Below, one piece after another: positions 10,263 to 64,000 of a stretch of 64,000 bases of DNA; within the stretch, counting starts at the first letter, position 1; each line of letters starts with the position of its first letter. This DNA comes from Marsupella aquatica (Eukaryota; Plantae; Marchantiophyta). A program made the position numbers and the translations under genes. Location: assembly GCA_973895155.1 (NCBI GenBank), contig OZ316892.1, positions 30,386,932 through 30,450,931 of the forward strand, given 5' to 3'. The notes beneath the pieces are model-generated. The model did no database searches, was not told where the DNA came from, and saw only the letters and a program-made list of their open reading frames with translations.

Positions 10263-10273
10263 GCCTGCGCATG

Positions 10274-17852: not shown

Positions 17853-20800
17853 AATGGATAATGCAAAAAAGTGGGTAGAATCATTACCCAAGCCTACAAG
17901 TGTTGCACTAGTAGTGGTGAACAAGCCTCCAGTAGTTGTTAACAAAGAAGTTCCGAAGCCTAGAAAAATATCTCAGGAGACAACAACCGGGACTGCAGGA
18001 ACAACGGTCGGGATAGCCTCCAAACAAGTGGTAGGGAAGCAAAGACAAAGAGAGAGGAAGGAGCGCGAGAAAACTGAGACACTGCCAAAGGAACCCAAGA
18101 AGAATCCAATAAAGAAGAAACAGAAAACTGACAAGACTATTGCGCGGTCAACTCCGACGGACGTACAGATGCTCCCAGAGGATGAGGGAGACAAACTTGA
18201 TGCCCCGGAGGAGAAGAAGGTCTTAGAAGGGAATGATGTTCTCCAAAGAATAGAGCAGTGGAGAAAATTTATCCTGCTCCGGCAAGGTTATGTTACAGGA
18301 TGCTCAACAGTGCCCATGTGAAGCACATAGCCGAATCCATGGTGAAAAACCCTGGACATGAACCTCACGTTGCAGACCTTCTTCCTTACAATCCAAAGCT
18401 TAGAAAGCTGCTTCATTTTGATAGCACGGAGAACAACCGCAAAGACCTTCTTGCAGGAGTGAAGAAAGGCGAGATTGTTTTCCTTGCTGTCAGTGGGCAA
18501 CATTCTGCTAGGGTGGCCAAATGGGTTCTTGAGTGGGCCGAAACTGATGCCAAGCTCACAGTTTTGGCAAAAAAGTTAAAATATAGGAAGGCTAGATTAT
18601 TGTCAGACCTTACGCCATTGGCTATACTGGTTGAGCACTCAATGAGATCAAATGCCATCAATTCTTTGATGGTGTTTCAATCGTGCTTCAAAGATACAAT
18701 TGTTCATGCAAGAAAACAATTCCTTGAAACTGGAAGACCAAGAAAGCCAAAGCACGGGGACAACAAATCAAACGCCCAAGACAATCAGAAATTTCAGGTG
18801 AGTTCTTGTTTGGACAGAGATGGTCTCTGTCCAAGAGTGTGACCTTCGGTTACGTTGATTTTTGTTCAATATATTTTGGGTTATGACTTGGATGGAGATG
18901 GTCTCTGTCCAAGAGTGAGACCTTCCATTCTGTAGATTTTACTTCATTCTACTTTTGGTTATGGCTTGGACGGAGATGGTCTCTGTCCAAGCAAGCGATT
19001 GTGTGTTGTCAAATCTCATTGATTATAGATAACTTACAACATTCTCCCTAATTTTTGACTGTAGGATTATCTGGCATTGGCAAGGATGACCATGGGGAGA
19101 AAAGACTTGAAAAATATATACTGGTTACTTTTTGCCGAGAATGATCTTTTTGAGTTATGGCGGTTAGTGTGCCAGATGTGGATTGATGGAAAACTTCCTG
19201 ATGGGGCTGGTACACAGGGAAACAAAAGGTCCGAAAAGGTGATAACCGTCGCCATGTTTCGTTGTTTTGATGGTGAAATCTCAAATAGAGATTTGACCAG
19301 AATTTTGAACAAGGTGAAGTCGGGTCAGATTTTATTGAAGAAAGATCCGACTAATAAGTCAGATGTTCCAGCGATGGAGGAGTTTGCAAAGGAGGTGAAG
19401 ATATTGATCAAATTGAAGTCTCTTATTGGAGATTACTACTTCAAGAAGGATCCAAAACACTTCCCAGCAGATACTGATTGGGCTAAAGTGATTGAAGTCC
19501 TCCCATTATTGGGTCCCGATTCGGAGTTGAACAGGTGCCGAAGAGCACTGGGCGATGTATGGTTGACAAATTTGTTGAAGTCAAATCATACAAAGGAGAG
19601 TGAGATATTGCCAATGACATTGGTGATGCGTCTAGATGATATTTACTGTCAAAAGTTTGGCGGTGGGATAAGTTCTCGGACCCAGCCATGGGTCACATTT
19701 TTAAGTAACAACCTAATGAAGACTGTGGATCCGGAGTCGTTGGAAGAACAATCTCCAACATGCCCTCTTGCAATTGTTGATTTCAGCCGACTTCAGCAAA
19801 AAGAGTGGACTGAAGTAGAGATTTTGGTCCTCTTCCAATATATGGTAGAGCTACCACGGAATCCTACCATTGTTGTGATGATAACTGTCCATCCAGGTTA
19901 TCTTGTATTGAATGTCCTAAGCGCTCTTCGTAAATTAGGACATTCAAAAACTTTGAGTATTCACATTGAGTATGGGAGTTATTACCGAGATGATCAACCT
20001 CACCCTCAGGACTCATGTTGGAAGGGAGGAATAGAAGAAGTTATCTTTGCCGGTATTTCTCGCGAGGAGAACGCCAGCTGGGATGAAGTGTTCAAGCCCA
20101 ACCAAATGAAGCCAAAATGGGTGTACGGTGAAAAGGATACTAATTTCATGGTTGAGAAGATCAAGGGAAAGGGAAAGGCCAAGGACGCGGACGAGGAGTC
20201 ATTGCATGAAGATCTAAAAAATATGATGACCCCAGAAGAGGCGACAATCCTTCTGCACATGGCACCTCGATTTGAGACTGTCGGCGCTCGGGGTGGGTGG
20301 GTGAATCCTCATGCCAAACCCACACAAATGATCCAAAAGATCATCCAAACACTGTCCGAGCCGGGGGATTTGATTCTTGACTTTTTCTCTGGTGATCAAG
20401 TGATGAAGGCATCCCTTTTTTCTCAATGTGAATGTTTTGTTTATTGTGACTCTCAACATGAGAGACATTTTGTGGAAGCATACGCTTCGTTCCTTTGTGA
20501 GAAGGTTCCCACCATCAAAGATCGTTATGATCGCTATGTCGGTGGAAGTTCTAGACATTGGGAACCCTCTTCTGCCGCTGTTGCTATTGAGGATGAATCA
20601 TATGGTGATCAAGAAGATGGAGCTGACCAATCAGTCAAAGACGATGGGCCATCGGAGGGGGCATACGTGAAGAATTTGGATGACCAAGTTGGCGAGGGTG
20701 AAAATATTGACCTTGTGGAAGACGATATGATTGTTGGATCTGCACCTTGCAGTTCACCAATTACAGATGTTGCCCCCATGGGCCCCAACAAGGGCCAATA

Positions 20801-21437
20801 TGATGATAACTTGGATAGAGATGGTCTCCATCCACAAGTGCCTGGACAAGAGATGGAAGTTGATACTTTTGAAAAACTTTCTTCAAACAACCTTCTCAAT
20901 CAAGGTGCGGAGAGGCATGGTGAGTCCAATGAACTTGACACATTGGGATTGAGACCACAGCCCATCCAAATAGCTGACATTCCCGTGAATGAAGCAAGTG
21001 CATCCACGACTGCTGACAACCAGGCAGGTGCTTCAATTTGTCCCGATACACTCTTTTCCACTTCTGATGACAAATTGGTGTTTGTTCGATCACAATCTAG
21101 AAGTCCCGTTGTCCTTCCACTCTCAAAAAAGAAAGGGAAGAGAGTAGGATCAACTGGATATAAGTCACTTGAATATGATTGTCGATGTTATGTGTGGAAA
21201 AGTGGACCCAATGTAGGAACTGAAGTTGCATTGGATGCTGCTCAATCAATTTTGAACAATGACTTGTACAAAAAGCACAAGAAAGATCCAACTTATAGAA
21301 GTGGAGAATTGGGATTGATAACTCCGGTTTGGTCTACACCTTATTGGATAGAGGAGAGTACCTCCGATGTCAATTATGAGATCCAACAAGAGCTTGGTGA
21401 TGATATCTTGATTGATGAATATGGATCGCATTGTTAG
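17853..21437 (+). pseudogene. ParB-like domain + beta-class DNA methyltransferase-like fusion gene, copy A (5'-truncated)
   Basis: ParB-like: EKIYPAPARLCYRMLNSAHVKHIAESMVKNPG..FLAVSGQHSARVA. Intron 18798-19064. MTase-like: NPHAKPTQMIQKIIQTLSEPGDLILDFFSG..CFVYCD. Frameshift near 18240. Confidence 0.75.
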
Positions 21438-21689
21438 CCAAGGTCTAGATTGAGCAATGTGACCTTATCAATTTGATATAATATAGTCTGTATAATTATA
21501 CTTCAAGTTTAACAATTAGAGCATCAGTATCAATATCCATCTCCTCTTTACGGTTTCTCAATGAATACGATCAGTATGCAGATATATTTTCTTTGTGGTT
21601 GGCCACTTGTGTTGGATTGACAGAGATGATCTCTATCCAAACTTCAAATGTGGTTTTTTCTCTAAGATTGGTATTTGTTGCACTTGCAG

Positions 21690-24600
21690 AACCAAGACCT
21701 TGTTCCATCAAGCGCAAATTGCTGATTTTGGATCTTAACAAAATACTTTGGGATTCAGTTGAATTCCAAAGCAAGGGCAAATCCAGAAATGTTGTGACCC
21801 CAGGTGGAGTGCATTGGGATAGAAAAAATGGAATTAGTCGCATGTACACAGAAAGGCCAGGGCTCCATGAGTTTCTAAAGTTGGTTTTTGACCGATTTGA
21901 CGTTGCAATTTGGACATGTGCTGGGGTACATCAAACAGTGAAAATGCTGAACATGATGTTCACTGCCAAGGAGCGGTTGAAGCTGTCACGCGATTGACAT
22001 GGGTCTTAACACCAAAAACGTCACTATGGGTGTCAAAACCATCTCCTTGTACCTGAGGATCACGAAGGGATGTTGTGAAGGCCGGTAAACACCAATTTAT
22101 GCCCTTAACACCAAACTAGATCATAGCCAGACTCCATCACACATCACCCAAGCTCAATCCCAAGGAACCAAGGTTGGGGATCAGGTCTGCGCTCATGATA
22201 GTTCTGGTGAGAAGGGGTCTTCATATCGGGCCCGTACACACAGGGCCTAGCGCTACGGTGCGCACAGGTCTATACGTATGCTTACTGTCATAGGTATGTT
22301 TCTATTCCGCCGCCGGAATGTACCCATAAACCAGTGACTCTTGACTGATTCCCGGCTTAGGGACTTCTAAGCCATTGCCCCACCACTCTGCCATTCCACT
22401 CTCAGCAATCAAAGCTATGACAGTCCTCACCCAGCCTGCTTCAATGCACCCTGTACACCTCTCAGTGGCGCTGCTAGTCCCATCATACACTCAGATTGCC
22501 TCACACACACACACATCCATGAGAGAAATGAGGCCTGAGAGGAAAACTCAATTAGATTCAAAGATGTGCACAATAGCTCACTGAGAACACTTGATCCGAA
22601 TACTAGGGCCGAAGGCTGTCTCCTCCAGATTGTGGCATGCTTGCCCTGCAAGCCCCATGCTTGCCATGCAAGCTCAATCCTGAACCTGAGCCCGGCTCAC
22701 TCCAGATTGCGACGGCAGATTGGACTCAAACCAATCCCGTACTTGCCTTGCAAACTCAATCCTAAACTCAACCTCCTTCACTGCACTTCATTCTTGGGGG
22801 CACATACAAATCTCACACCTCCAATTCAGAACGTCAAGTTATGCATACATAGTTGACTCGACTTCAAAGCTGGTACCAGGCCTAACGGCGATCTACCCCA
22901 GACTGCAATGAGGCCCGGCCTCACGCTTGCCCTGCAAGCTCCGCTCTGGCCATAGATCCCTTAGTGCTCTCCACCAGACAAAGGCCGGGACTCCCCATGG
23001 ATCACGTAGCCTTGCCGGACTGAACTGTAAATGCTCCTCCTGCTGCCCCTCAATCAATGTCTCAGCCTCCCTAATGTGCTCACCACAAATCAAATTGACA
23101 TCCTCCCCACAGTTTACAATCACCAATACATCACCTATCACCAAGGCTCTGTATCGGGGGAAAAGAACCCAGTTGTGCTACCCACTAGAAAGAGCCACAA
23201 TCCAACTCGCAAACCTAGCAACCCGTTGCTGTGAAGCTTGGCTGATTACTCCCTGAGTAATAGCACAACCAAGCTCTCCCCAACACGCAGCATCCAAGTC
23301 CAGCCTTGCTTGCACAGAGCTCCTCCCTGCTGCTCAGTCTAAGTGAGATCACACAACTGAAGTCCCCCCCCCCTTGCCTCTACCGGGGGGCTGCTCTATA
23401 TACTCTCATACTGAGCCCAAATGGGTGGATACTACGCTGCTGCAGCCCCATCCCAGCCCTAACAGAGCCGCCACTATCTCTAACTACTGAACCCTAACTC
23501 GCAACTTTATTTCTATCTCGAATTGGCTATGTACTTCGGATTTGGCCCTCCTCCATGGTTTTTGCGAGCTTGCGCCTCCTCTCCTGATTTCTCTATTCAA
23601 CCATTTGCTGCGTGGATATCAGCGTTGGAAGCGGCTTGAGATCCTCTTTCCAACGAGGTCAATTATAGCCGATTTGGTCAAATACACAGAGAGTTATGCC
23701 CCCGCAACCGAGAGGGGATACTCACTGCTGCGCTAACCCGAGTTACATAGCTAACCCGAGTTTGGCTAACCTAGCTATCCTATCTAACCCGAGTAGAGCT
23801 AACCCGTGGTCTCGGGTTAGGCCGCTACCCGCTATCCGCTAACCGCTAACCTAAGCTGAGCCCGAACCCGAGCTTACCTATGCTAACCTGAGCCCGAGTT
23901 TAGGCTAACCCGAGTTAAGTCTAACCCGGGATCAATCTAATCCAAACCCGGGTTAAGCCTAAGCTGAAGCCGTGCTTACCTGAGATAAGCTGAAGCCGTG
24001 CTTACCTAAGATAAGCCGTGGCCGAGCTTGGGTTAACCCGAAACTGAAGCCGAACCCGCTAGTTCCGGCCATAAGTTAACCCGTCACACTAATTAGGCCG
24101 TATCTTCCTTAATACACCTCCATTTCCCGAGTGTCATATCTATTTTACTTGCCTTGACCAGATCTTTCCAATGCTCTTTACAGATCCAGATTTGGTGACA
24201 TATTGAAAGAGATATGGTCACCGACCACCCGCGACATAGCTTTTCTTTCCCTACTCTTAACGCCATGATTGCCCTTATTCTTGTCATCTTGCTAATTGTT
24301 ATGCAATATCAATAGCTACTCCTTGCATACAGCAACCTACTTAATCAGATTACAAAATAAGGACCATGTCATTGGCGTCACAGAAACTTAAGTTTGTATT
24401 CACACAGGTGGAAGCCTTTGACACAAGCATTCAAAGGCGTGACATTACAAACGGAAAGGCAAATGTGCTACTGAAGGATTTTCGGGTGGTATGGAGTGGA
24501 TTTGGAAATCTATATGATGAAACCAACACCCTCCTTGTGGATGACTCCCCCCTTAAGGCATTTGCCAACCCAAGCATGACCGGACTATTTCCAGTGCCCT

Positions 24601-25110
24601 ACACGCATGCCAATGGTGGAGATAATTTTCTTCTAACAATTCTTTGGCCTTGTCTTGAGAAACTATCCCATGCAAGTGACATTAGATGTTATCTTCTTCT
24701 TAACTCTCCATTGTGGTCTCTATTGCACATAAAGAGAGACAAGGTAAAAAATGAAATTACTTATGATCAACTTAGTAAGAGATGTGCAACAAAAATTTGG
24801 AAGTCACAGTTTACGCATAGTGTGTTGGACCTCAATAGCAATGAGATTCCTTGGAACGTGAAGCATCATATATGTAGTTTACGTCCCGAGGTAGAACTTG
24901 ATGATGCACTTGTCACGTCACTTGCTAAAGCATTTGTAGGAAGGGACTATTCAGGTCCGCATAGAGAAAATCCCAGACACTTTTTGCGGGAGATTATAGC
25001 CATTAGGAACAACACCACCAAGTTTCAGCTCCCTAAAGATAAAGGGACTTGCAACCGTGACACTAGGGTAGATAGTAAAGGAGATAGGGGCACGTGCTCA
25101 AATACGAGGT
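21690..25110 (+). pseudogene. FCP1/NIF-like HAD phosphatase-domain gene, copy A, split by a solo LTR
   Basis: RKLLILDLNK..ERPGLHEFL..FDVAIWT, resuming after the insertion with LLKDFRVVW..YDETNTLLVDDSPLKAFANP. Removing 21984-24387 restores ERLKLKFVFTQ. Confidence 0.85.
21984..24382. mobile_element. Solo LTR (~2.4 kb)
   Basis: TG...CA ends with imperfect inverted termini (TGTCACGCGATTGACATGG vs TGTGACGCCAATGACATGG). 5-bp TSD GAAGC/GAAAC. No retroelement ORF. AACCCGAG-type repeat cluster at ~23730-24085. Confidence 0.85.
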
Positions 25111-25522
25111 ACACAACTTCATCAGTTATCAGTGACTTTCATCAGTCACTGATATCAGTCTGTGCCCAAAACTCAGCGACGCCGCCGACATGGACTTAAT
25201 TCACACCCACAGTCAAACCCTATGTCGGCGTCCACTCCGACAAAGTTTTGGTTCGGACAATTAGTAATGTTGGCTGCCTCTCTGACCATCTTGGCACCCT
25301 CTCTGAGATATCCTTGGAGTGTTGTTCCATCTCAGCTGAGCTCGCCAAGATAAAAACATACCCAGCAACGTGTACAACATAGCATATCAAATAGGAGCCA
25401 CATTAAGAATGTTTGGATGACACACTTTTTATTAAGCTTTGTACCGAACTTTACAACGATGTTGTCTATCTCAATTTTCTGAACTAAATTCCACTAGGCT
25501 GCGTCTCCATCTTCCATCCTCT

Positions 25523-26704
25523 CTACAGGGTAATTGTCTGGCAGACAAGGTCCACAACAATCTTTTGCCGCATGATGTCTATAAGTGCAGGGTCAAAGTT
25601 CAGTACGCCGCCTCCAAAAATACGCTCCATGTACATAATGATATATACACCACAATTGTAATCATCCCCTTGACCTGGAATGTTATCTCGGTAAATGCGT
25701 GGCCATTCTAATGGACATAACAAGGTACGACCCCGCAAGATGGAGAGGTCCGAAAGAAACTGAGCTACTTTGAACACTTCTATGCCATCCTGTGCTTCGG
25801 GCACAAGCGGATCAAGTAAATGCCGTTGCCGCAAGGCAGTATCAACCACAACTAGTACCCAGTGTTTTGGCCGGTAGACGGGGTTTAAAACGTACTCGTG
25901 CTCCCACATTTGAATGCCCCACCAATATGCCAACGCTGCGTTGAAGTTATATTCCGGAGTTGTCATCACTTGGTAAAAATGTGTTGGGCAATAACATGGC
26001 CTTGGGTTTATGAAGGGTTTGTGCTCTTCATTCCAGTAAAGCAATGTAAGCATTGATGACGTCGCAAGTGATCCATTTTTTGGCCTCAAGCATTTTAAAT
26101 GTGCCCTCGTCAAGTGCACGTCCTCGATTGTCACTATGACCTCTTTTTGGTCCGCCTTGGGGTCCAATGCCTTCTTCACTATCGCCAAAAATTTGGATGG
26201 TTGCTGTTGTGCGGGCACTCCTTTGTTTGCAAGCCCCACCTCTTTCACTCTTGCCTGGGGAGTCAGCCCCTCATTCACTGGTTGCTCAGGTCTCTCCTGA
26301 GCTACAATGAAGGTAAATTCATTCAAACATTACTCTTTGGAACTGGAGCTTGATAATCTTATACTTACATGGTGAGTTTGGAGACTGTCACTTCCTACCG
26401 AGCTACTCTCATCCGATTGAGCTTCTTTTGCCCTATCATCGACAAATTTGAGAGTTTTCCTTTTTCTCTCTTTTACACAGTGAGGCACTATTTCTTCATG
26501 ATAGGTATCAGCAGCGTAGCACGGAAGGGTTAACTTCTCCGGCGAGAAATATGCCAAAGCTTCCTCCCATGCGAGCTTGACAAGCCGTCTGTCGTGGCTG
26601 TCCCATTCTGCTATAGCTGACTCGGTAGTCCTGTCGGGAACTGCTACTAAGTTATACTTAAATCCAATCAAATAATGTATTGCGCCCAAAATAGACGTAA
26701 ACAA
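25523..26704 (-). pseudogene. Ulp1-like (peptidase C48) SUMO protease
   Basis: LTRAHLKCLRP..PVYRPKHWVLVVVD..LLDPL..PGQGDDYNCGVYII.YME retains His/Asp/Gln/Cys. In-frame stop at 26330 and an apparent frameshift where WLxDxVIN is expected. Confidence 0.85.
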
Positions 26705-26740
26705 GAAGGCATTTGTCGGGGAAGGTAGTCGACATGGATC

Positions 26741-29700
26741 GACGGATCTTGGAGAGGCCAGTCGAGATCACTCTTCCTGAGACGGATCTCGGAGAGGCCA
26801 GCCGAGATTGACTATTCCTGAGACAGATCTTGGAGACGCCAGCCGAGATGACTTCTTGAGACAGATCTCGGAGAGGCTAGCCGAGATGACTGTTCCTAAG
26901 ACGGATCTCAAAGAGGCCAGCCGAGATTGACTCATCTTGAGACGGATCTCGGAGAGGCCAGCCGAGATGACTGTTCGGTACATAGATCTTAGAGAGGCCA
27001 GCCGAGATTGACTCTTCCTCAGATGGATCTCAGAGAGGCCAGCCGAGATTGACTCTTCCTAAGACGGATGTAATGCTGTACATTAGTTAGAAATGATGGA
27101 AATTTTATAAATTTTGAACTTTTTCTAACTCAAAGGTGTAGTCTAGTTACCTTTTGTAGCAATTTAGATCAACTGAACACTTTAGCTAATGCTATCCTTC
27201 ATTGGAGGTTATTGTATTGGACAAGGATCGATAATATAAATCCTTGCTCTTTACATGCTACCAAGAAAGAAGATTGGACATCATTGGAGAAGCAATGCAG
27301 ACTAGAAGATTCAAGAACTGGCCTCCAAAACACTTCTTCAGCAAGAATGAGCTCTGTGTGCAATTATCACAATCAACCGATCTTTGCTATTTTAATTAAA
27401 TAGCTATCATGGTCAGAAAAGTCTCATACTTTTTCAGGAGTTAGTAGTTACATAATAAAATCATCCTTGAAAGTTTCATCTCAAACCGACATGTGGTTTG
27501 AAAGTTAAAATTATTTTAGTTTAGCTATTTTTTACATAGTCGCGACTTCGCCGACGCTTGAGAAGCGTCCCTTGTATTTTTGGACGCTTTCTGAAGCGTC
27601 CACCCAAGACCACAACGCTTTCTGAAGCGTCCTCCACCCAACCAGTTGTACTTCGACGCTCTGCAATCCACATGAGGAGCGACGCCCACAGAAGCGTCTG
27701 CTACCCCGAAGGCAACATTGACTGCGACGCCCACGGAAGCGTCCCGCCCGAAGACCAGAAGACGGACGCTTCGACCAAACCTCAAAATTCAGCCGACGCT
27801 TTCTGAAGCGTCCACAAAAGTCCTTTGTAGGTTTGGACGCTTTCTGAAGCGTCCACTATGTTCTCGACACTTAGAAATATTTTCGTTTTTCGCACTTTTA
27901 TAACACCGCGCAACTTTTACCGATTTATTTGAGGCACTTAGAGATCTCAGAAAAGTCTGAAACTTTGCCAGCATATAGACTATATGTAGTAGAGTACCCT
28001 AGAAAAGTTTCAACTCATTCCGGCTTTTAGTTTAGAAGTTAAAATTAGATTAAGATTATTGTTTATTAGTTTTACCGCAAACACCGACGCTTTGCAAAGC
28101 GTCCGCTCAAACCTCGACGCTTTGAGAAGCGTCCCCTGCATTTTTTACACTTTCAGCAGTGTCCATTCACTTTTCAAGGATGATCGTCATTAAGTTTATT
28201 CAAGACCCTTTAGATATGAAAGGGCACGTCCTTTCAGTCTCTCAGTCTCCTTGCGTTCCTGCTAGCCTATATGAAGTAGAATTTGTGTCATTCTCGAGTG
28301 TGAAGAAATAAAGTAGTGCCTGTGGCATGTGCTGCAACACTAGAATCACCTTTGCAAAGCTTTCGTGTGTCTTTGTACGGTATGGAGCTTGCAAATGCAA
28401 ATGAATTCTTCTCCCTTCCTTGGTCTGAATGATTGAAAGTTTAGATCATTGAAGTAAAATTACTTATATGAAGTTGAATCTCAGAAGTATGAGGGAATAG
28501 ATTCCTTAAGTGGTGACAACCCATATTCTTGAGTTCTTGATGCATAGTTTTTGGCGTGACATTGCTTGTGCACGGATGCAAAGATTGTTACTCACCAATT
28601 ACCTGTGACTTCAATTTGATCATGATGGTGTTTATTATTCGTGACTCAGAGTACCGACTAGATATCGAAGTGATTGATTACTAGTTTCTTTTGAGTACCT
28701 TTGGAAGGAAAAGTTGAGACGTGTTGACGGCATTTTAGTAATCATCCTAGTACAGTAATCCCTTCCAGAAATGTTCTTACGGATTTACCACCCAAATCAC
28801 ATCAAATGCAGTATTGATAAGAAGTTACCTTGGTGTTTTCCAGACTCCCTCATCATATCTCAAGATTTCATTGTGTTTTGTTATTTGTTTCTATTTTATT
28901 AATTGCATTTACAATGTTAAGCAAACATTCAAATCTATGCCTTGCTGAGCAATCATAGTAAAAGGCTTAAACCTATGTTTTTGTTACCTTAGTCAGTCAT
29001 AAGTATTAAATGATAGAAAACCATTCCTTTCTTGTTCTTCCATGGGATCGAATACCGAGTTTTGGACATTAAATGCTGATTTATGTCCTTAGTGCAATAC
29101 TACAACGGATCTTGGAGAGGCCAGCCAAGATCACTCTTCCTGAGACGGATCTCAGAGAGGCCAGCTGAGATGACTATTCCTGAGACGGATCTCAGAGAGG
29201 CCAGCCGAGATTGACTCTTCCTGAGATGGATCTTGGATAGGCCAGCCAAGATCACTCTTCCTGAGACAGATCTTGGATAGGCCAGCCAAGATCACTCTTC
29301 CTGAGATGGATCTCGGAGAGGCCAGCCGAGATGAGTATTCCTCAGATGGATCTCAGAGAGGCCAGCCGAGATTAACTCTTCTTGAGACGGATCTTGGAGA
29401 GGCCAGCCGAGATCACTCTTCCTGAGACGGATCTCGGAGAGGCCAGCCGAGATCACTCTTCCTGAGACGGATCTCGGAGAGGCCAGCCGAGATGACTATT
29501 CCTGAGACGGATCTCAAAGAGGCCAGCCGAGATTGACTCTTCCTGAGATGGATCTTGGATAGGCCAGCCGAGATCACTCTTCCTCAGACGGATCTCGGAG
29601 AGGCCAGCCGAGATTGACTATTCCTGAGACGGATCTCAGAGAGGCCAGCCGAGATTAACTCTTCCTGAGACGGATCTTGGAGAGGCCAGCCGAGATCACT

Positions 29701-29870: not shown

Positions 29871-30069
29871 TTGCATGTAGAGGAATGAATCTTGGCGAGG
29901 TCCGCCAACATGCATCTCAAGTTAGGACTTGCCCTCACTTGTAGAGGAGGCCAGACACTATGAATGTCAGCGAGGTCAGCCAACATGCATACATATCAGC
30001 GAGGCCGCTGACTTGTATCCCTCTATTGTCAACCATTGCGACGATCAAGCAAATATGAAATGAACAACG

Positions 30070-33091: not shown

Positions 33092-33097
33092 GCGACA

Positions 33098-50529: not shown

Positions 50530-50624
50530 TCGATCTAGAAAGTATAGGAAGGATAAGTTCAAATTAGTGCTCAGACCAAACTGGCACTAATTTGAACTTA
50601 TCCTTCCTATACTTTCTAGATCGA
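50530..50624. repeat. Perfect 41-bp inverted duplication with 13-nt loop
   Basis: 50530-50570 is the reverse complement of 50584-50624. Confidence 0.9.
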
Positions 50625-53145: not shown

Positions 53146-56100
53146 GCTCTTAGTGTGGTGCGTCCCATGGCTCCCTAAACCCAAGAAACCCACCAGCACA
53201 AGCCGATTCCCGCAGGTTTCGCGCTTGGCGGGGCCGTTTCCTCGGCTTAGCGGCATGGGACGCTGCTAACCTCCTTCTACTACTACTATTAACATTTTAC
53301 ACACATATACTGGACAGATCCTTCATCGGGTCATGAGATATGTAGCCGGCCTACTCTAGGCCTTCCCTTGTCTTCCTCTCCTTCTGGTTAGGTATATTTG
53401 GATTCCGCCGCCGGAATGATCCCCAATAGGCTTGGTTAAGCCGCTAAGACCTCTCTCAGCTCGACACATCCAACTCTCACTCCCTTGCTTACTTTCCTTC
53501 TCCTATTAGTTGATGTGGGCACTCTTCACACAAGTTAATGCGACACACAAATAGTAAAATGACTCCTTCTGACTGAGTCATACCATGCACTTGCCATACA
53601 AACAGTACATCTCATACACAAGCTCTGCGAACTAAGCCGTGAGGCCAACTCTATTCAGCTCTTAGGCATGAGGAAACATGAATATACACAAGGTCACTGT
53701 ATGACTAACCGAGAGCTTCTCTTACTACTTGATCCCAGCCCGGCTGGTGCAAACTAAAAACTTGCTAAAGAAGAGGCCCTGAGCTCCCCGTAGCCCAGGT
53801 ACTTATCCTAGTAGCGGATCCGCCAAATTCTTTGCAGCGTAAGCCTAATCTACCTAACAGAATCTACCTGCCCGGATCTACCTATGTACAGCAAGGCAGG
53901 GGCACAAGTGTTGCTCCTACCAGTGGAACCGCAATCCCACTAAGCTAAGTGTCAGGGCCGCTCCTGGTCCTGATCCTAATTTTAAACTTGGAGATCAGCG
54001 CCCGCCCTGCCCACTCACGTCTCCTACCTCCACGTCCGCCCTTCCTAAAAGGAACGGCGTCCTTGCACCGTCACGACACCGGTGGTGGATCCCCAATGGA
54101 CGCCCCCAACGCTTCCTCCTCAGCCACTGCCGTTGGCCCGTCTACTGACAAATTACCTGCCCTTGACTGAGTCAACTCTCCATCGGCCTGACTGGGCCCA
54201 CCCTCGGCCTCGGCATCGGCTCGGGAATCATTCTCGGCTACGGCCTCAGCCTCGGCTTCGGCCTCAGCTTTGGCCACTGTCTCCCCGGCCTGCTCAAGGG
54301 GTGGATCTGGGATACCGGCCTCATTACTGAGTAGCTCGACTTGGGCCGCGCCATCCCCACCTTTGGTGATAGTGGAATCTATTGCTGTGTTCATGCCGGA
54401 GGTTGGTGCCGGTTTGAGTACGGCTTGAGGGGTCGAATAACCTCCGGACCCCAAAGGTTTTCGCTTCTTCTTCTTCACTATCTCCACAGCTGGTTCCTTC
54501 CCTTTGCCGCCCATGTTCGGCACCGGGCCGTGTGTCACGGTTGGTCCTTCGGCAATTACCACCCCTGGTAACTGGTTCGCCCCAACGGGAGATGGTCCTG
54601 CTGCAGCTAAGCATTTAAATACTGCGGCTTGTTTCTTCAGCCGCTCTGTTTGGTTGTCGGCCCGCCGCTGTAGGTTCTCCATCTTCCTCGTGATTTCCTC
54701 CAACTCCTCCTGGGTCTCATCCAGGTCCTTACGTGCCCCCTCCAGCTCGTTTTTGGCCTCCTCCTGCTCCCTGTGGGCTTCCTCCAACTCCTTTTTCAAG
54801 GTAGCCCTCTCCTCCTGGGTTGCTCTAAGCTCTTTGTCGAGCTCTATCACGATCTCAGACTCCATTTTATTCATCTTGGCATAAGTCTGATCGAGCATAT
54901 TGTCCTTCTCCCTTAGGTCGGCCTTGAAGCTGGCCGTTAGGGACGCAAGCTCCTGCTATAGCGCAATAATCCCTTGATAGGATTTCCCTAACTCGGCCTC
55001 CTTCTGCTCAAGGGCTCCGCGGATTTTCTCGAGCTCCCCCTTCAACGCCCATTCCTTTCTTTGGGTCTCCGCCATGACCCGGTTGTTGACTGCTATATGG
55101 GCCTCCTCTGCGTCTCTCAGCTCCTTCTTCCATTTCTCCCTGTCCTTGATTGCGTCGGCCAATTCTCCCTGGGTCTGAGTCAGTTTATCCTTGATAATCT
55201 GACCATCAGCCTGCGCTGTGTCCAACTGCCCCTGCATGATGTTCAGCTCATGCCGCTTAATCCGCAGTTCATCTTGGGCTTTCTTGGCCGCCCTTAGTTC
55301 TTCAATCTCGGCTTCCATCCTTCTAAGCCGCCGGATGACCTCATCCTTCTTGCTTCTCTCTAAAGCCACCGCTTCATCTAATTGGTGCTTCTCCAACTGC
55401 TCCCTATGGAAAAAGGGTCCTACCTCCAACTCCTCCCCAAAGATGCCGAGCGCAAGTTCTCCACACATCTCACCATACTCCATGGCTCTATTCTTAGCGT
55501 AGGTGGAGTAAGTAGAAGTGATCGGCATCGTCCATCGCGGCCTCTGCTCCCAAGCCGTCTTGCGGATCTCTTCAATCGTGGCTAGAGGTTTGCTTCCTTT
55601 TTTGGCTAGCCGCCTGATGTCCTCCGGCCAGTCTCCTCCTGGTAAATCCTTTTCCCTAGCCAAGGCTGCCTCCTCTTCCTGCCTGATTTGCTCCTGAAAT
55701 TCCTGCGCCGTCTGTTTTATCCGTCAAAGCTCGGGGGAGCAACATCTGGTGGGGGAGACTCAGGGCTACTCTGCTAGTTGGGGTCCCCTCGTACTACCCT
55801 TGGAAGTGTGGGGATAAACCGGCCACAGGTCCTTACTCCTGGAACGTGATGGTCCGACCCATAGCCGGAGTTATCATGGCTGCAGTCCTCCACTATCTCC
55901 TCTACTTCTTGGACTTCCGGCTTCTCCCTCTCTTCTTCGTCGATAGGAGCTTCAGGCAATTCTTCCTCAGATTCAGAGCTTGAGACTCCTACGTACATTT
56001 GAACACCCGGCTTGGATTCTGGCCTGATTCTCTCCTTATTTCCGGTAAAGGGGTTTTCCCTTGTAAGTCTGCTTAGGTTGACCTCTGGGGCAGTGTCCTG

Positions 56101-57839
56101 CATTGTTGCCGTTGCCGTTGTCGTTGCCATTCTCTTTTCTTTCTCCACTAGTTTCAGCAGATTCTGCATGCCTGGTTGCTGCATCGGCAAGTCTTCCTTC
56201 CTTGGCCTAAACACCTGCTCAATCGTAGGGCTGACAGGTGGTTGAGGCTTCTCTGCTACCGGCCTCGGTGCTGGCGCTTCCTCGGGTGTCCTTACCTGTA
56301 GGGGAAGTACTGGGGCAAAGGTCTGACCTCTGGCATACCGGCACAACAGCGACATGTGATAGCCAAGCCGCGACACGCTCCCCATGCCGATTACCTGCTG
56401 CTCCTCCTTTAAGATCTTCTTCAATTGGTTGAGGAGGTACCCGTTGTAGTCCTGGCTTGGGTCTGGCCTCTCTGCCAGATAGACCTGTGCCTTGCCGATC
56501 TCTGCCCTCGGCAAGTTACAATGCATGGTTACCCGCAAGAAGTCGATCATCTCTCCTATGTGCGGGTTGGTACAGGTGTTCCAGAAGAAGCCATTCTTCG
56601 TTGATGGCCCGGGGAACGACCGGAACTCTTTGTCAGGCAAGGTCTTCCTGGTATCAACCTTGGTCTTATTGCCTATCGGCAAGCCAAACACTTCGGCAAT
56701 TACCTTGGGAGTAAGATAGAAATCCTTCCCATATATCCTCGTGCAATTGGTCTCGGGTTCCCATGACCCCACGAATTCTAATAGGTCTGACTCCGGCACC
56801 TCCAGCTTCAACCATGGTAATCTTACAAAGGCCTCTAAGCCGGATCCGGCCATGAAGCCTTGGTACTTCTTGGTCTGCATGGCCGTAAAGCATGCATCCT
56901 CCTCCCGTGCAAAATGTAGTTGCACCTCCACTGGTAGAGTTGCCTCCCAGCCCTTCCAGGTGTCATCCCTGGTTGGAATGGCATTAATGGGATCGACCTC
57001 CTCCTCTTCGGCTTCTCCCTGCCTCCCGCTCTGCTGCTCGGCTGGCTTCTTTGGTGCCGCCGACCTCGTTCTTTTCGCCGGGGTGGCTTCATCGATGACG
57101 GCTCCCTTCCTTTTCATCTCGGCTGCCGTGGAGGTTTCTCCTAGCACCGTTGCCTGGGTCCACCTTTCCGTGCTACCCTTCAATTCCCAGTGTATGTCGT
57201 TGCAGTTCTTGATGGCCTCTCGAATGCCGATGATTCTGTCTTTGCAAAACAGAAGATCGTCGAGCTGATTGGAAGTAGGAGTCCACAAGAACTCGGCCTT
57301 GATGAGTTTGCCTCCTAAGAAAGCCGCTTTCTGCAGCTCCCACAATCGAGCGAGCTCCTGCCGTTCTCGAGCTGCTCTCTCCGATTCTTCGTCCTCGTAA
57401 GTCCCAATGTACTTAGTTGCCCGTTCGAACAGGCAACCCCAGAAATGTGTCGCTTGATTGACGTTGCTCATACCCTCCTTAGGTCGATCGTCGGTATCTA
57501 CTCTCTCCCCGAGTGCTTGCCTAAGCAGCTGACAGTAGTTGGCCTCCCGTAGTCGTCTGCCGAGTTTGTGCCTGCAAATGAGCCACAACTCCTCGCGAGC
57601 TGCCCTTACCCCTCTCCTCTTCCGGTCCTTCCTCCCGTTGATCCTTCCTAGCCGCCGATGCTTAGCGCACCCTAACCCTAATCGAGTTCTCTCCCCTGGC
57701 GTCCTTACTTCCGGCCTCGGCTCGGGTTCCATAGTCGCCCCTAATTGTTTATATTTTCCTTGTTTTGTCCCTATACTAAGGTGTTGCCAGGGTGCATTCC
57801 TGCTTTACCCACTCAACTGGCCGAGTGATTCCTGACTAG
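53146..57839 (-). mobile_element. Unclassified 4.7-kb element, copy 2, with intact flanks
   Basis: GCATC direct repeat at 53141-53145 and 57840-57844, and removal restores the host frame. No TG..CA termini and no long terminal repeats. Confidence 0.85.
54071..57732 (-). CDS. Accessory ORF(s) of the unclassified element: plant-transposon-like domain plus long coiled coil (ORFs 55774-57732, 54956-55663, 54071-54898)
   Basis: Close homologue of 33098-36218, with an in-frame stop at 54956. Confidence 0.55.
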
Positions 57840-60800
57840 GCATCACACTTAGCCCAACCTATGATCCAAACAACTGCCTTTGCCGAATGTTGTCCACTGA
57901 TTGCAAGGAACTGCACCTTCTTATTCTTAACACCCCACTCAAACTCCTTTCGATCCTCAACAGTATTCTCATAATGGAGCAACTGCGAACTCTCTCTTGA
58001 ATACGGAATTAAATCCGCCACAGCTGGTACCATTCCAGGGTTTCTAACCATGGATTTTGTGACCTCCATGGCATGGTCTTTATTGAACATCCTATATACC
58101 AAAACTGCAGACGGCGAATCTATACTAGTGATAGGAATGTCAAAAGTTTCATTCATGCCAAATGTGTAATACTCCTCAATCTCCTTAAGAACTTTGGCTC
58201 CTTCCTTAACGCTCTTTTCTCCTGGAGCATCTCCTGGAGTGCCATCATCATCGGTATGTGCATTCACACCCGAGGAAGATGCCGGAATGAGATCTACCTT
58301 GGGCGGCGCGGACTTTTTTTGAGGTGGAGCCTTCTTCACTTTGCTTTCGGGTTTCTCAACCCTCTTCCTCTTTTGAGACACCTTTGCTTCCTTTTTGTCC
58401 AAACCTGACATCTTGTCTCCTGCAGCTACAGATTTCAATTTACCTGTTTGTCTCCGATGAGACAACACCCACTTTTTACAAGCATCCTCGTCAAATTCTC
58501 CGGCTCCAAACACAAAATCAGGGGATATGGATTCAAACTCCCCCAATTTGGATTCCGACATTAGTCTCAAAACCTTCCACGTGAAAGGAGTCATGAATGC
58601 ATCATCACAATCAAACCCATACTTTCGACAGTAAAGGAATCCAAAAATTATGTCCGCTCCAGATATAGGAGTATCTTCTAGCAAATTACTTGTAGTAAAA
58701 CCCCCAGGGAAGAACCCCATTGATATCACGCTCAGTTGTTTCCTGGCTGCACGTTCAATGTTAAGATCGCAAGAGTAGTTTTTGGCGTGAAGTCTAATTA
58801 GAGCCCACTTCCCTGTCTCGTGGTTCTCCACCGTCAAAACCATGTCCTTACCGTTACTTGTCACAATAGAAACAATAGGCCCTAGAAGGCTGCACACTAG
58901 AGGATCGACTGATGGAGACCTCGTCTTCACACAAATAATAGTTCCTTCCATGTCTTCAGTTTCAGCAAGCTCAATGGCCCAATAGAATCCAAATAAACCC
59001 TGTCCAGGGCAGGAAACCTCAATTGCATGTTCATCTTCGACTACCAAATTGGGCGATCCCAATTTTGCACCTAGTACAGCCAAAATGTAGCAATTGTCAG
59101 AAACATGTACTACAAAACCAAGAAACAAATAGGTGGCTCGAGATGATCTCGATCTTCCTTTTAAGTTTAATAGTCTGACATGTTCCAATGCCATTTCATC
59201 CATGGAATTTAAAAAGAGATTTCAAACCCAAGAAATCTAAAAAGATAACACAATAGTTAGGAAACACAATAGGCTCGAGATGATCTCGATCCACCATCTG
59301 TTTAAAAGATCTCGATCCTCATATATATCAGTTGAGGTTTTATTCCATTGCATATCATGAACCAGTCAAATTTAACGAACAACATTTTCAAGAATGATCC
59401 AATGTCACCTATTCGACCACATTCAAAACCCTCTAACTCAGTGGTTTGTCATCTTCACAAACGAGTTGGAGGACTAAGAAAGTGGTCCAAAAGGCAAGCT
59501 TGGATCACAATGAAAAGGATATTGGTAATTGATGACATGGAGTCCTTCCAACTGGAAGAAATTGGCCAAGGGATACGAATGACCATAAAGGAAGATGGTG
59601 AGGGATATATTTGGCTCGAGACGATCTCGAGCCTAACATGTCAAACGAGTGATCCAAATATCATATTCAACAATGAACATCATATTCAATCAATGATTAA
59701 AATCCACTTTCTCCATTGACTTCTGATACCCACAAACCCGTTCAGATGTCAATAATCAGAATGAGTTGGAGGGTATAGGAATCCCTGGAGAAAGGAAATT
59801 TTAGATTTTTTGGATATGATTTTTCACTTTTGAAGGATAAGGGTTTCCAACTTGAAGAAATCTCACTAGGTCACATGCAGGAATTGCATATTGGCTCGAG
59901 ACGATCTCGAGCCTCATGCCACTTACATCAAATGCAAAATCAATTGATAGATCACAACTTTTGAAGCAAAGTATTGTAGAAAACATCAATAGGCTCGAGA
60001 TGATCTCAAGCCTCAACTGCATCCAAGGAATCCAGAAACAAGTGGACCAATTGAAGCTTGAGACAATCTCGAGTTAAACCTGAACAGAACAAAGATGATG
60101 AATTACGTTTAATGGTGCGATGGATCTGATGCGCTGAGTCTAGATGGGTCTGAAGCTCTTTGCCAACGGTTGCAAGGTTGTACTCAGCGAATTCCTCCTT
60201 GGAGAAATCTACAACAGTCAACATGGCTGGTGAAGAGAGGAACGTACTACGGGCTGAGAACTTAAAAACAAATCTCGAGCCTAAACAGAATATCTCGACC
60301 CTATCGAAGCTCTAGCTTAAACACAAAATCTTGATACTATAAAAGCTCGAGGAAAACCTAATCTCGACCCTCTGCAATCTCGAGGGTAATACAAGGATCT
60401 CGAGGCAAGAGCGCAAAACAATCTAGAGGCAAGGAGGCAAGGGACGCGAGGAGGCGAAGAGGCGAGGAGGCGAATATGAAAATGGGGACTTCAAAACCCC
60501 TGAAGCCACTATAAGCCCCTCGGGGGTCAGCCTTGGCCGTGCCAAGCGTGCTAGGGCTCGTGCAGGCTCAGGCAGGCTGCCACGCAACCTGCTGGGTGCG
60601 TACAGTCATTATTACGGTCACAGGTGTTGTCATTATTGTTATCCGTACTTCAACCCTGCCGTGAGTTTAGCCGTGACACAAGTTCAACGAAGCCGTCTTA
60701 TTGGCCTTTTTGTCTGTCAGGGTTTTATATATTGCTTCTCTTTGGTCTCCAGCGGGTCATTCTTCTCATTTCGTTTCATTGCTCGCTCGTTTCTCCCTCT

Positions 60801-61591
60801 GCCTCTCTCTCCCTCTCCCTCTCCCTCTCTTTGGCTCTAGATTTCTGCTCTGATCTCTTTCTATTGTTCTTTGCAAGGGTTGTGGACTCTACGTTTGTGT
60901 TTAGGATATTTCAAGAAATTCTCATTGTAAGCCCTAAAGGAGGTCTAAAATAATCGAGCTCCTATCTTTTAGAAAACCAAACCTTTTCAGCTTATACTAT
61001 TGTCGGTCAAAATCCATTTGGAAGCATTTTCCCTCTATTTGATGGCCTTTTAGAAGCTATTTCTCAGTGTCTGGAAGTAAACTGGGAGCCTACTTTCTTA
61101 ATTGCACCAAATCATTCCTCTAGATCATCTAGAGCCATTATATGCTCTTATTTTGGGTGGCTTATTATTCATAATAGTTTCTTTGTCAAATACAATGTCC
61201 TTTTTGGCTCGAGATCATCTCGAGTCATAAGTTTGATCCTCAAACTTATTCACTTTTGCCTTCTTTCTAATGGTGCATTCGGTTTTCCTTCTTATAATTG
61301 AGTTTGTAGAGAGTCGGAGGTATAGAATCTGAATTCGCTATTCAGTGAGATTTCATATTTTACCTCGAGATCGTCTCGAGCTAAATACTTCTGAATTTTT
61401 ACATATTGGAGTTTTTTGTCCCTCTTCTACCTCGAGATCGTCTCGAGGTAGAAGAGTTTCTTATTTTCTCTATCACACAATTTTGTGGGATAAACTTCTA
61501 CACTTGGGTTTTTTGGTTTGTTTTTGTAGTCACTTTACCTCGAGATCATCTCGAGGTAACTACATCCAACTGTTTGGACCACGTTTTCAAA

Positions 61592-64000
61592 ATGGGGATT
61601 TTCTTTCGAGGGGACAAGGTTTTCCTCGTAATCGACGGAGTGGAAGTTGCTTGCGGGACCGTCCTCAAGGTTGACCCGGGTGACTCAGTGCGTAATGTTG
61701 ATATGGGAAGTAATCGTATAGGAGTTCTCATTGAGAAGTGCTATGAGGGATCACGGGAAATTCCTTACCCTTTGCCGCCGATCAGGACCCTCATTGATGC
61801 TGTCGACTTCTGCATTATTTGGGATGCCTGTTTTGCATATTTGAAGTCACAGTCAACTCCAGCGACAACACAAATGGATGCCTCTTGTTTTACAAAGGAT
61901 ACGGTTCCCGGTTTTGTACCAGACAAATCTTCGGTGGGAAGTTTTGGAGACTCGATTATATCTGGTGATGAAGTTGAGCTCTGGATCGGCAATCAGATTG
62001 TGGCTCGTGGATTTGTGTTCAAGACGAATCCCAATGAGACCTGTCACAATGAAAGACTTGGCACTTCTAGGATTAGTGTGAAAATATGTGAAGTTTTCAA
62101 GGAAGGGAGAGGTTACCCTTTCCTCACAATGGAGCCGATACCGTTCAGGAAGCATTGGACACTTTTGTATTCTGGAATTTAAAGGATGTTACTCGGAGGA
62201 GTTCTTCCCAGGATATGCTAAACAACCTATCCACACGGGATGTTTTTTCAAATTATAATTTCAAGGATTATAGTTTGCGTTCTAATTGGATGACCGAGGA
62301 GGTGGAATTGTATGCTGAGGATAATCGGACCAAAGTGGGGGTTGGCATCATCACAGTTCCTTTCAAGTCAGGTGCAATTGATGATGATGTTCTTGGACCA
62401 GATCACGTTGGGGTTGCTATCACACGCGTGATTGACCCTCTATTTTTCCCAAATATCTCCCCAGGAGTGCCTGGTCTTGTTAGGTGGGTCGTCCGTTCAC
62501 TTCTACTGATATCAAGGGGTATTTTTCTTCTGGATCTCATTGAAGAGGTTTCTCCAAAACCAATTATTGATGGTCGAGATCATCTAGAGGTAGATATGAA
62601 AGGTGACACTGAGTTTTCGAAGCGCCCGTATAATTTCATCAAGAGAACGAAGGTCAACCCAGATGAAAAAAAGGAAGAAGCACTTGGAGTCTCGGGCGAT
62701 ACTGAAAATCACAGAGGAGGAAATCGACTCCATCCAAAGAGAAGGTTGTTGTAAGTTGAAGTGTTGCCTCAGCATGCCGAGAGAAGACCTACAGGCGATA
62801 AGGAGGGAATACCATGGGATGTCAAGCGACAACAAAACCAGTCACATTCTCACTCTTTTTGGCTGTAGGGAGAAGGAAGTGGAGACAAAAGGATATTTTG
62901 TTGTAAGAAGTAGACTTGTTTGCAAGGGTGCATTTATTAAAATGCATGGATTCAGCACTGCCAAGTATTATGATTACAAAAATCAATATGAAGCAGGTTG
63001 CACGGTTGGATTCCACGGAAACAAGGGTTCACACAAGACACGGGGAAGCACCTTGCATGCTCGTGCTTTGTTGGAGTCCATTCTAACCCAAAACGGAGAA
63101 CCCATGCCGCATCTTCCCTATGGAGGGTCTCACGGGACTGACACGGTTGAGTACAGACTTCCATCTTGTTTCACGAAGAAAGAGATTTTTGAGGAGGTAT
63201 ACTCAAAAATGGAATTAGATGGCTACGTGAAGGTGAGTGAAAACACTATGTATAAACTCTGGAGTGAGTCCTTCATGAATTTTGACTTTCACAAGGGAAG
63301 TGCATTTGCAAAGTGTACACTTTGCACTGAGTTCAAAGATCAGTTGATGCGGGAGAAGAGAAAGAAAGAGCGTTTGGAGATTGAGGAAAGAAGAGCTCGC
63401 CATCTTCGTGAGCAAATGTCTAGGAGATATGTTTACTATGCTCATAGGGTTCTTGCGAAGAAGGATCCTGAGAACTATCTTTGCATTATACATGACAAGA
63501 TGGACCAGGCCAAGACATGGATCCCTAGGTTGGTCTCCACTCCTAAATCATTGTCTGGTAGTGGTCAACCGCTCCCCATTGCGCTCACTGGGATGTTGAC
63601 CCATGGAAGGGATCCCGGAGTGTATGCTCACTTCAGTTTCACTGGGCTTTGGCCGGGAGATGCAGACTTCACAGTGACATCATTGGCCAAGTGCCTTAGA
63701 GATCTGGAGGATTACAAGGGGGACAAATCTGGAGACCTCCTTGAAGGATTATATTGGGCTGCAACGAGACCGATTTTTCAATCTCTTTTGGACTTTGAAG
63801 CATTTCTCGCAGGTTACTTAGAACCCAAAAAAGTCTCAATTGCTAGATTTCAAGGAGCTGAAGATGACCAAGACTACTTTGGTGTTGATCCCAAGGCTAC
63901 ATCTACCTCTTTCAAACCATTGCCAAGGCACCTGACCTTGCAAATGGATAATTCAGGGAAAGATAACAAAAACCAGTACGTGATGGCATTTTGCAGTGAG
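61592..64000 (+). pseudogene. DUF7869/Sola-like DDE transposase with three N-terminal Tnp1/En-Spm-like repeats; frameshifted, runs off the window
   Basis: Hand translation gives GCCKLKCC, LVCKGAFIKMHG, MPH..RLPSCFTKK, FAKCTLC, YLCIIHDKMDQAKT.IP, LTGMLTHG and LTLQMDNSGKDNKNQYVMAF. Confidence 0.75.

Follow-up and report, generated by a model that had tools for sequence, protein, structure and literature searches.

Element-specific palindromes and ParB-methyltransferase-like accessory genes in four nested DNA transposons of the liverwort Marsupella aquatica: candidate non-catalytic self-regulators

The 64,000-nucleotide stretch of Marsupella aquatica DNA analyzed here (the window) contains four nested DNA transposons (A, B, C, and D), each with a large accessory gene and a private palindrome family, and it raises the question of whether the accessory proteins read these palindromes and to what effect. 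Related genes have been described in algae. According to PMC12477816, Ectocarpus Sola1-1_Ec32 and transposons of green and red algae carry an accessory gene for a ParB-like plus N4C/N6A methyltransferase (MTase) protein, which was predicted to be an active enzyme and proposed to bind and modify its own element, a published guess without a known target. The label of a (candidate) new system in the earlier note on this DNA was therefore overstated. What is new here is the occurrence in a land plant (a liverwort), the catalytic loss, and the element-specific candidate sites. In our main reading, to which we give a probability of roughly 0.45, the accessory protein would be a non-catalytic, sequence-specific self-regulator of its own element, VANC-like in its working.

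Element A (17854..25200, plus strand) is a 3' remnant whose 3' end is not fixed; a CACTA element that ends at 17853 has taken the place of its 5' part, so that A is also 5'-truncated. Its sequence was multi-copy in 4/4 runs. A solo LTR (21984-24382) splits the NIF/FCP1-like phosphatase gene of A (21660..25199, plus strand; Pfam NIF), and an empty site skipping 2404 bp was found for this insertion in all four runs. Element C (25201..33091, minus strand) is likewise a 3' remnant, with a solo LTR (27069-29104) and a Ulp1-like protease gene (25523..26329, minus strand; Pfam Peptidase_C48, E 7.7e-10); its 5' part, and with it the 5' end of its accessory gene as the earlier note had stated, was lost where C joins an LTR-element copy near 33092. 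No transposase was in view for A or C within the window. Element B (36936..64000, minus strand) runs off the window and is host to D (37950-49401) and to an LTR-type insert (53154-57847, TSD CTTAG). It extends beyond D to approximately 36936, which explains the B-type palindromes at 37329-37626. The NIF phosphatase gene of B (37638..50154, minus strand) is in two pieces (49402-50154 and 37638-37949) with D inserted between them, and a putative DDE transposase (61560..64000, plus strand; Pfam DUF7869, E 2e-13), possibly of the Sola type, lies head-to-head with the accessory gene. Element D (37950..49401, 11,452 bp) is a complete Mutator-like element, having a MULE transposase, imperfect TIRs ending in GGG, and a 9-bp TSD with one mismatch; its ends were confirmed in 4/4 runs, each with an empty-site joint that lacks 11,461 bp. 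The MULE-like transposase gene (38900..42420, minus strand), which is broken in the present copy, was recognized by an Atlas score of 0.95 to a cluster that is 61% MULE, and had no Pfam match by hmmscan.

The accessory gene of A (17854..21437, plus strand) has an intron at 18798-19063. Exon 17854-18797 encodes a ParB/Srx-like region with the motif SGQHS and a frameshift near 18290, and exon 19065-21437 encodes a helical domain, an MTase fold in which AIVDFSR replaces DPPY, a linker, and a C-terminal domain. In B (50564..59000, minus strand), the ParB/Srx-like exon (SGQHS; 57848-59000 plus 52900-53153) is interrupted by the LTR insert, the intron position is that of A, and exon 52729-50564 has SIVDFGR in place of DPPY as well as in-frame stops. 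The D gene (43564..47033, plus strand) includes exons 43564-44130 (DGNHR), ~44255-45567, and ~45760-47033 (MTase-like, with FIYLPTG replacing DPPY), and carries stops and frameshifts in this copy. The remnant in C (30070..33091, minus strand; exons ~33091-32200, 31700-31180, 31100-30640, and 30570-30070) is homologous to the D gene (blastp E 3e-11 to 5e-4, with ~1e-7 for the link as a whole); its MTase motifs are degenerate, with no Pfam match and a weak match to the PHROG MTase profile (E 0.059). Pfam N6_N4_Mtase was matched by A (E 5e-6), B (6e-5), and D (8.5e-4), the curated cut-off being reached by A only. The four genes had been described as ending in an MTase-like domain, and this domain is indeed present, by Pfam in A, B, and D and by homology to D in C; in A and B it is not the last domain, being followed by the linker and an unknown domain of ~110 aa. 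The A and B proteins are 33-48% identical. The A/B and D families are unrelated and are borne on unrelated transposase types (DUF7869 and MULE), with the same design; in B and D the accessory gene is opposite in strand to the transposase gene. All named relatives of the accessory proteins are from liverworts.

For the A/B family, the model of a full-length relative (P0156, 1,009 aa) consists of a ParB/Srx domain (Z 6-8) and a beta-class MTase domain. Residues 463-758 align with CcrM (Z 17.7, rmsd 3.6, 223 aligned) in the permuted beta-class order, where the catalytic region precedes the SAM-binding region, and the MTase domain matches N4CMT at Z 15.6. Residues 65-217 gave middling scores with PadC (Z 7.9, rmsd 3.7, 99 aligned), SerK (7.2), ParB-N (6.6), SbnI (6.3), and Srx (6.2). 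ParB/Srx-superfamily matches rank immediately below the MTases in the structural list, further matches being KorB (Z 7.3) and Noc (Foldseek E 2e-3), and the best viral match (Foldseek E 9.7e-8) is a phage ParB protein, aligned across both of its domains. Thus both folds anticipated by the earlier note are present in the A/B-family model, while the ParB families of Pfam and PHROG gave no match to the accessory genes. The ParB/Srx fold of the N-terminus is supported by modeled structure for the A/B family; the D protein is predicted to be ParB-type from the DGNHR motif, recognized by eye in a region with no Pfam, homolog, PDB-sequence, or profile match, and its beta-class MTase assignment is made at the sequence level. 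The central helical domain, modeled in isolation for the A/B family (pLDDT 90.8), reached a best structural Z of 5.0, with no HTH or ParB DNA-binding domain among the matches listed, and had no Foldseek match; whole-model alignments with KorB (rmsd 12.3) and Noc (rmsd 6.9) reach into it.

The catalytic motif IV, [DNS]PP[YFW], occurs in 0/157 proteins and is missing from all four element genes; its Asp is retained in 43/50 sequences, with PPY replaced. The SAM-binding motif I, DFFSGG, is conserved (D 45/57, G 50/57), reads DWTAGAG in the D gene, and is degenerate in C. The Box I arginine is present in 5/5 sequences, and the Box II GxxR arginine is replaced by Ser (GQHS-type) in 8/8 A/B-family sequences and kept in element D (DGNHR). 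This arginine is described as required for nucleotide binding in the ParB folds tested (PMC12704722), and mutation of SPPY is reported to abolish N4CMT activity (PMC8885841). Given the absence of DPPY and of the Box II arginine, and the unmatched HTH, a methylating, CTP-driven clamp is unlikely for A/B. Judged by these motifs, nucleotide gating appears doubtful in A/B and plausible in D. Of the proposed functions, then, marking of the element and, for A/B, CTP-dependent clamping are not supported, nor is shielding, since CpG depletion is no weaker around the palindromes (observed/expected not higher in A, B, and C, and slightly higher in one D bin). With a conventional methylase role unlikely in the liverwort family, the hypothesis moves from writing marks to reading DNA.

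Counting sites that score above the best outside score for the matrix of each element, we found 5, 19, 35, and 16 palindromes in A, B, C, and D, respectively; under first-order Markov nulls, the mean was at most 0.06 copies and the maximum 1. With leave-one-out matrices, every tested copy beat every outside position in A (5/5), B (16/16), and D (12/12), as did 10/10 tested copies (10 of 35) in C, with element boundaries drawn by us and the 3' end of C placed partly by its own palindrome. Confinement of the palindromes to their elements, as first claimed, was thus borne out by the inside-versus-outside comparison within the window. The originally proposed patterns had 3/4/5 (A), 7/14/17 (B), 1/4/8 (C), and 4/9/12 (D) matches at 0/1/2 mismatches.

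The A palindromes (TTGGAYRGAGA-N3-TCTCYRTCCAA; 18810..21640) start at 18810, 18888, and 18966, all inside intron 1 of the accessory gene, at 20811 in the coding linker, and at 21616. Eleven of the 19 B palindromes (CTCGAGA-N3-TCTCGAG; 37329..62590) lie at 59136-61538, in the region that separates the accessory gene from the divergently oriented transposase gene; the remainder are in intron 1 (52760 and 52854), near the 3' end (three sites, 37329-37626), in coding DNA (two), and before the NIF gene (one). The 35 C palindromes (ATCTYGG-NGAG-N-CTCN-CCRAGAT; 25329..31975) include the unit of two tandem arrays with a 40-bp period (26741-27069 and 29105-29876), with a further cluster at 31753-31975. 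Five of the 16 D palindromes (CTAGCGCC-N-GGCGCTAG; 38542..48966) lie between divergent genes (42692-43099) and the others in introns and intergenic gaps, with 1/16 less than 500 bp from an element end. Altogether 72/75 palindromes are non-coding, though 61-86% of each element is putatively coding by a rough exon map, and intron 1 of the accessory gene holds sites in A, B, and D. The A and B palindromes have a common core (GAGA-N3-TCTC) and are mutual best outside matches.

We propose that the accessory protein, with a predicted ParB-type domain followed by an MTase-like domain without the catalytic motif, would bind the palindrome of its own element as a dimer and, when bound, would regulate that element, probably maintaining its expression, without methyl transfer. 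We infer that the binder is the accessory protein rather than the transposase; dimer binding is suggested by the two-fold symmetry of the sites, and an activating effect by comparison with VANC and VirB. DNA may be read by the central helical domain or by the target-recognition surface of the dead MTase. Among the elements of this single locus, a private family was found in 4/4 gene-bearing elements versus one clear and one marginal case among five others. The kinship of A and B in both proteins and sites counts for protein-site pairing, but would also follow if A and B as whole elements share an ancestor. Mobile-element proteins of the ParB family are described as acting through palindromic sites (VirB, PMC10770331; KorB, PMC11790492), and VANC motifs as element-specific, non-coding, and tandemly amplified (PMC5735166); the VANC-like logic invoked by the earlier note is reasonable for palindromes that are element-confined and mostly non-coding. 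Against self-regulation count the palindrome family (six to eight copies) of the solo LTR at 27069-29104, which has no accessory gene, the CpG values near the motifs, and the lack of a DNA-binding fold match for the central domain.

The same solo LTR and the unmatched HTH favor a somewhat unlikely alternative, in which the palindromes are transposase or host-factor sites and the ParB-pseudoMTase, carried as cargo, serves some other purpose. Each element would also have its own transposase (none for A and C in the window), and transposases can themselves activate cognate copies, as described for the sequence-specific action of AtMu1 transposase (bioRxiv 10.64898/2026.08.24.746577). However, the sites are mainly internal, in promoters and introns (11/19 in B and 5/16 in D between head-to-head genes), unlike terminal transposase sites, and no palindrome family was seen across 17.8 kb of the CACTA element, which has a transposase but lacks a ParB-MTase gene. 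An unlikely, broader version of self-regulation is that unrelated eukaryotic transposon superfamilies repeatedly captured phage-type ParB-MTase genes, whose products would be clamps at private parS-like palindromes, spreading along chromatin under nucleotide gating in D-type proteins and without it in A/B-type ones, with the dead MTase as a DNA or methyl reader undoing host silencing. If true, protein and palindrome would form a programmable code that evolves fast, and a ParB-type DNA clamp would for the first time be seen at work in a eukaryotic nucleus.

It is rather improbable that the palindrome-bound protein acts structurally (TnpA-like end pairing) or represses its own element as a KorB-like limit on copy number. 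The pairing evidence applies equally to this case, sites in the intron and promoter of the accessory gene fit autorepression, and long-range repression is described for KorB (PMC11790492), but the ends of D have few nearby sites. Distinctly improbable is the full model of the earlier note, where the protein, once loaded at palindromes, would move along the DNA as a CTP clamp and deposit 4mC or 6mA, marking or shielding the element: both folds, the GxxR of D, motif I, the motif IV Asp, the Box I arginine, and the two-domain viral match agree with it, whereas the missing [DNS]PP[YFW] and Box II arginine and the absent CpG footprint oppose it. Finally, it is highly improbable that the palindromes merely arose through local duplication and that nothing binds them. 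The tandem duplicates in the C arrays and A intron favor this view; against it, the B and D copies are scattered across more than 10 kb, have flanks unrelated to one another, avoid coding DNA, and keep both arms.

Compared with known systems, the self-regulator that we propose resembles the algal proteins of PMC12477816 in size (~1,000-1,100 aa, ParB plus MTase), in residing on large DNA transposons, and in the opposite orientation to the transposase seen in B and D. It differs from their description in the liverwort host, the absent catalytic motif, and the additional Mutator-like carrier. Element-specific dispersed palindromes are found in the liverwort elements and go unmentioned for the algal ones in that source, where 'palindrom' has 0 matches in the main text and one unrelated row in the supplement. 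Like VANC of Arabidopsis VANDAL elements as described in PMC5735166, this is a DNA-transposon accessory protein with family-specific non-coding motifs, tandemly amplified as in C; VANC has DUF1985/DUF287 (no Pfam match in 46 ORFs or 30 relatives here) and non-palindromic 8-9 bp motifs, in contrast to ParB/MTase folds and 17-25 bp palindromes. VirB, KorB, Noc, and BisD are described with a ParB/Srx fold, then a helical domain, and with palindromic sites (PMC10770331, PMC11790492, PMC12704722); in our proteins, the Box II arginine is missing in A/B, the HTH is unmatched, the MTase fold stands in place of the dimerization domain, and the setting is eukaryotic chromatin. Phage ParB-N6_N4 MTase fusions have the identical domain order in the published descriptions (PMC12704722; PMC4738411), whereas the liverwort proteins have ~250 additional helical residues and have lost the catalytic motif; phage records gave no sequence match to them. 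MpDN4MT1 of the liverwort Marchantia and N4CMT of bdelloids have the permuted beta-class fold too, but are host genes with SPPY intact and no ParB in the descriptions searched.

With four candidate protein-site pairs from a single genome, of which two are related, the locus offers a ready specificity matrix. If binding and anti-silencing were true, these proteins would be a second, bacterially derived answer to the problem that VANC solves, and might also be developed into sequence-specific chromatin tools. In favor of the self-regulator reading, relatives (Calypogeia P0001 among them) repeatedly carry, within their disordered linker and as seen at the protein level only, a peptide that matches a read-through of the B-type palindrome. 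Against it, the copy at this locus has an excess of A/T at positions where other copies have G/C, as expected for methylated, silenced DNA.

The window consists of transposons inserted into one another, among them four DNA transposons (A, B, C and D) that each have a palindrome family and an accessory gene of their own, and close copies of all four are numerous in the runs searched. A CACTA element (1-17853; Transposase_21, DUF4218, DUF4216 and Transposase_24) ends within the accessory gene of A. This element has the lowest CpG observed/expected ratio in the window (0.37), and tandem-BRCT (8117-9034) and NSD-like PHD (9582-10289) genes are its apparent cargo. A solo LTR (21984-24382) interrupts the NIF phosphatase gene of A, and its empty site was found in all four runs. 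Element C (~25200-33091) lacks its 5' part and contains a second solo LTR (27069-29104). Element B (from ~36936 to beyond the window end) hosts an LTR-type insert (53154-57847) and element D (37950-49401). The TIRs of D are imperfect and end in GGG, its TSD is 9 bp long, and all four runs show an empty site that lacks 11,461 bp. The accessory gene stands head-to-head with the transposase gene in both B (DUF7869 transposase) and D (MULE-like transposase). A stop and two frameshifts of D in the window are absent from other D copies (three of four runs each), so the genes are real and the copy in the window is decayed. One run had a joint of 6 kb between two palindromes of D, which was set aside as too weakly evidenced (side of 22 bases).

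The four element-specific palindromes described in the earlier note are present in the window (A 5, B 19, C 35 and D 16 copies; null means of at most 0.06), and their confinement was borne out with leave-one-out matrices, where every tested copy outscored all positions outside its own element (A 5/5, B 16/16, D 12/12, C 10/10). Within this locus, the pairing of accessory gene and palindrome family is real. The palindromes of A and B have GAGA-N3-TCTC in common, and that of C is the repeat unit of its 40-bp arrays. By a rough coding map, 72 of the 75 sites lie outside coding sequence, including 11/19 B sites and 5/16 D sites between divergent genes, and intron 1 of the accessory gene contains palindromes in A, B and D. 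A blind count gave 17 palindromes in B, 15 in D, 12 in C and only 3 in A (null maximum 3). The same count in five other elements of the window gave 6 and 3 for the solo LTRs and 1-2 for the CACTA element and two LTR-element copies, so palindrome families are not exclusive to gene-bearing elements. The solo LTR at 27069-29104 (TG...CA, TSD ACGGA) has its own dispersed palindrome, GACGCTT-N3/4-AAGCGTC, whose 6-8 copies lie within 27553-28133, a patch rich in CpG (observed/expected 1.19 within 100 bp); the one at 21984-24382 has GCTTGC-N3-GCAAGC three times at 22639-22939, which is marginal against the null.

The accessory proteins fall into two families, A with B (33-48% identity) and C with D (25-41%). 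We handled the two separately, since blastp between them gave nothing significant, hhalign of the MTase domains gave a weak match (probability 3.5%, E 0.012), and the A/B ParB profile did not match D. At E 0.001 or better, a profile search yielded 214 A/B relatives, 150 of them listed, and the 39 rows with enough MTase sequence fall into several deep clades. The relatives that carry an organism name are all from liverworts: Calypogeia fissa P0001, at 43%, and 12 of 30 proteins examined (10 Riccia sorocarpa and 2 C. fissa); a liverwort host is therefore likely. In three Riccia models (3/30) the A/B-type protein is fused to its NIF neighbour. Downstream of the A/B accessory gene, this NIF/FCP1-like phosphatase gene (21660-25199; 37638-50154) is a constant neighbour, Riccia included, and could encode a partner regulator acting on RNA polymerase II. 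Searches with length or word limits found no homologues of the ParB exon of D or, prokaryote genomes included, of the C/D MTase; the ParB exon of A had only matches scoring under 0.9 in the Atlas, and tblastn against phage records gave no match to the accessory protein. The metagenome (6 loci) and viral (2 loci) scans returned ordinary prokaryotic MTases, none of them with a ParB motif or a plant DNA context; DPPY is present in 7/8 (one partial), in contrast to the accessory proteins, where it is absent.

Structure was predicted for a relative, P0156 (single-frame, 1,009 aa, 29-37% identical to the exons of A), rather than for the broken copies in the window, with a confident model. Residues 463-758 resemble beta-class MTases (CcrM, Z 17.7; PvuII, 15.9; N4CMT, 15.6) and residues 65-217 the ParB/Srx superfamily (PadC, 7.9; KorB, 7.3; SerK, 7.2; Srx, 6.2), while Foldseek matched Noc (E 2e-3) and a phage ParB protein (E 9.7e-8, 710 columns aligned). 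The proposed ParB and MTase folds are thus supported for the A/B family. DGNHR is retained in D, where a ParB identity found no backing in Pfam, homologue searches, PDB sequences or the A/B ParB profile. The helical domain between the two parts of P0156 folds well in isolation and has no match in structure searches, which leaves an HTH in the A/B family unproven; its helix order may be like that of the ParB DNA-binding domain. The A/B family also has a conserved C-terminal domain of ~110 aa with W-x-x-G-x-x-x-G (21030-21437; 50564-50851), with no meaningful match in Pfam or PDB; that it resembles the hybrid-binding domains of RNase H1 is unsupported.

Our leading, if tentative, reading, with a probability of about 0.45, is that a dimer of the accessory protein would bind the cognate palindrome and then regulate its own element without methyl transfer, probably as an activator or anti-silencer. 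The palindromic sites, gene layout, folds and motif loss were observed; the binder, its dimeric state and the direction of regulation we infer from the symmetry and placement of the sites and from two precedents, VANC (PMC5735166) and VirB (PMC10770331). Binding of the palindromes by the transposase or host factors is unlikely, though it is the strongest competitor, and is favoured by the palindrome family in a solo LTR (6 in the blind count). We consider a structural or repressive role of the accessory protein somewhat less probable again.

The earlier note had the protein load on its palindromes and spread to mark or shield its element, on the model of CTP-dependent ParB clamps; an active methylating clamp of this kind is improbable. 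MTase motif I is conserved, but at motif IV the sequence is D-[FL]-[STAG]-R, and the catalytic [DNS]PP[YFW] is missing in all 157 proteins examined (misaligned fragments left in), and likewise in C and D, which argues against marking by methylation; SPPY is needed for N4CMT activity (PMC8885841). In Box II, Ser replaces the GxxR Arg in 8/8 A/B sequences, which argues against the clamp for A/B: the ParB folds tested need this Arg to bind nucleotides (PMC12704722), and so does KorB, as R117A indicates (PMC11790492). Nor is there a clear footprint of shielding: in A, B and C the CpG observed/expected ratio shows no increase close to the motifs, and in D it is 0.77, 0.90, 0.73 and 0.67 with increasing distance. 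That the palindromes are neutral duplications is very improbable.

The system is new in part. The gene type and the guess that its product binds its own element were already published for the Ectocarpus transposon Sola1-1; palindromes are unmentioned for it in the main text and the five supplements searched of that paper (PMC12477816). No land-plant case is listed in the accessible part of Iyer 2016 (PMC4738411), and 'plant' and 'transpos' are absent from the ParB-fold survey text. Literature searches found no land-plant description of such genes; they overlooked the Ectocarpus paper, so this absence is weak. The land-plant occurrence, the family-wide loss of the catalytic motif and the element-specific candidate sites are likely new, and these sites make the published guess directly testable.

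Two copies (33092-36935 and 53154-57847; 82-85% identical) represent a TG...CA element of 4.7 kb and very high copy number, with a 5-bp TSD and long ORFs that lack RT/integrase matches, possibly a giant solo LTR or a non-autonomous LTR element with a coiled-coil protein. A perfect 41-bp inverted repeat (50530-50624) closes the accessory gene of B; other copies lack ~51 bp here, which points to a copy-specific rearrangement truncating the gene. Unassigned features at 47081-48693 in D are additional short ORFs and a tract of degenerate GGGACGATAG repeats.
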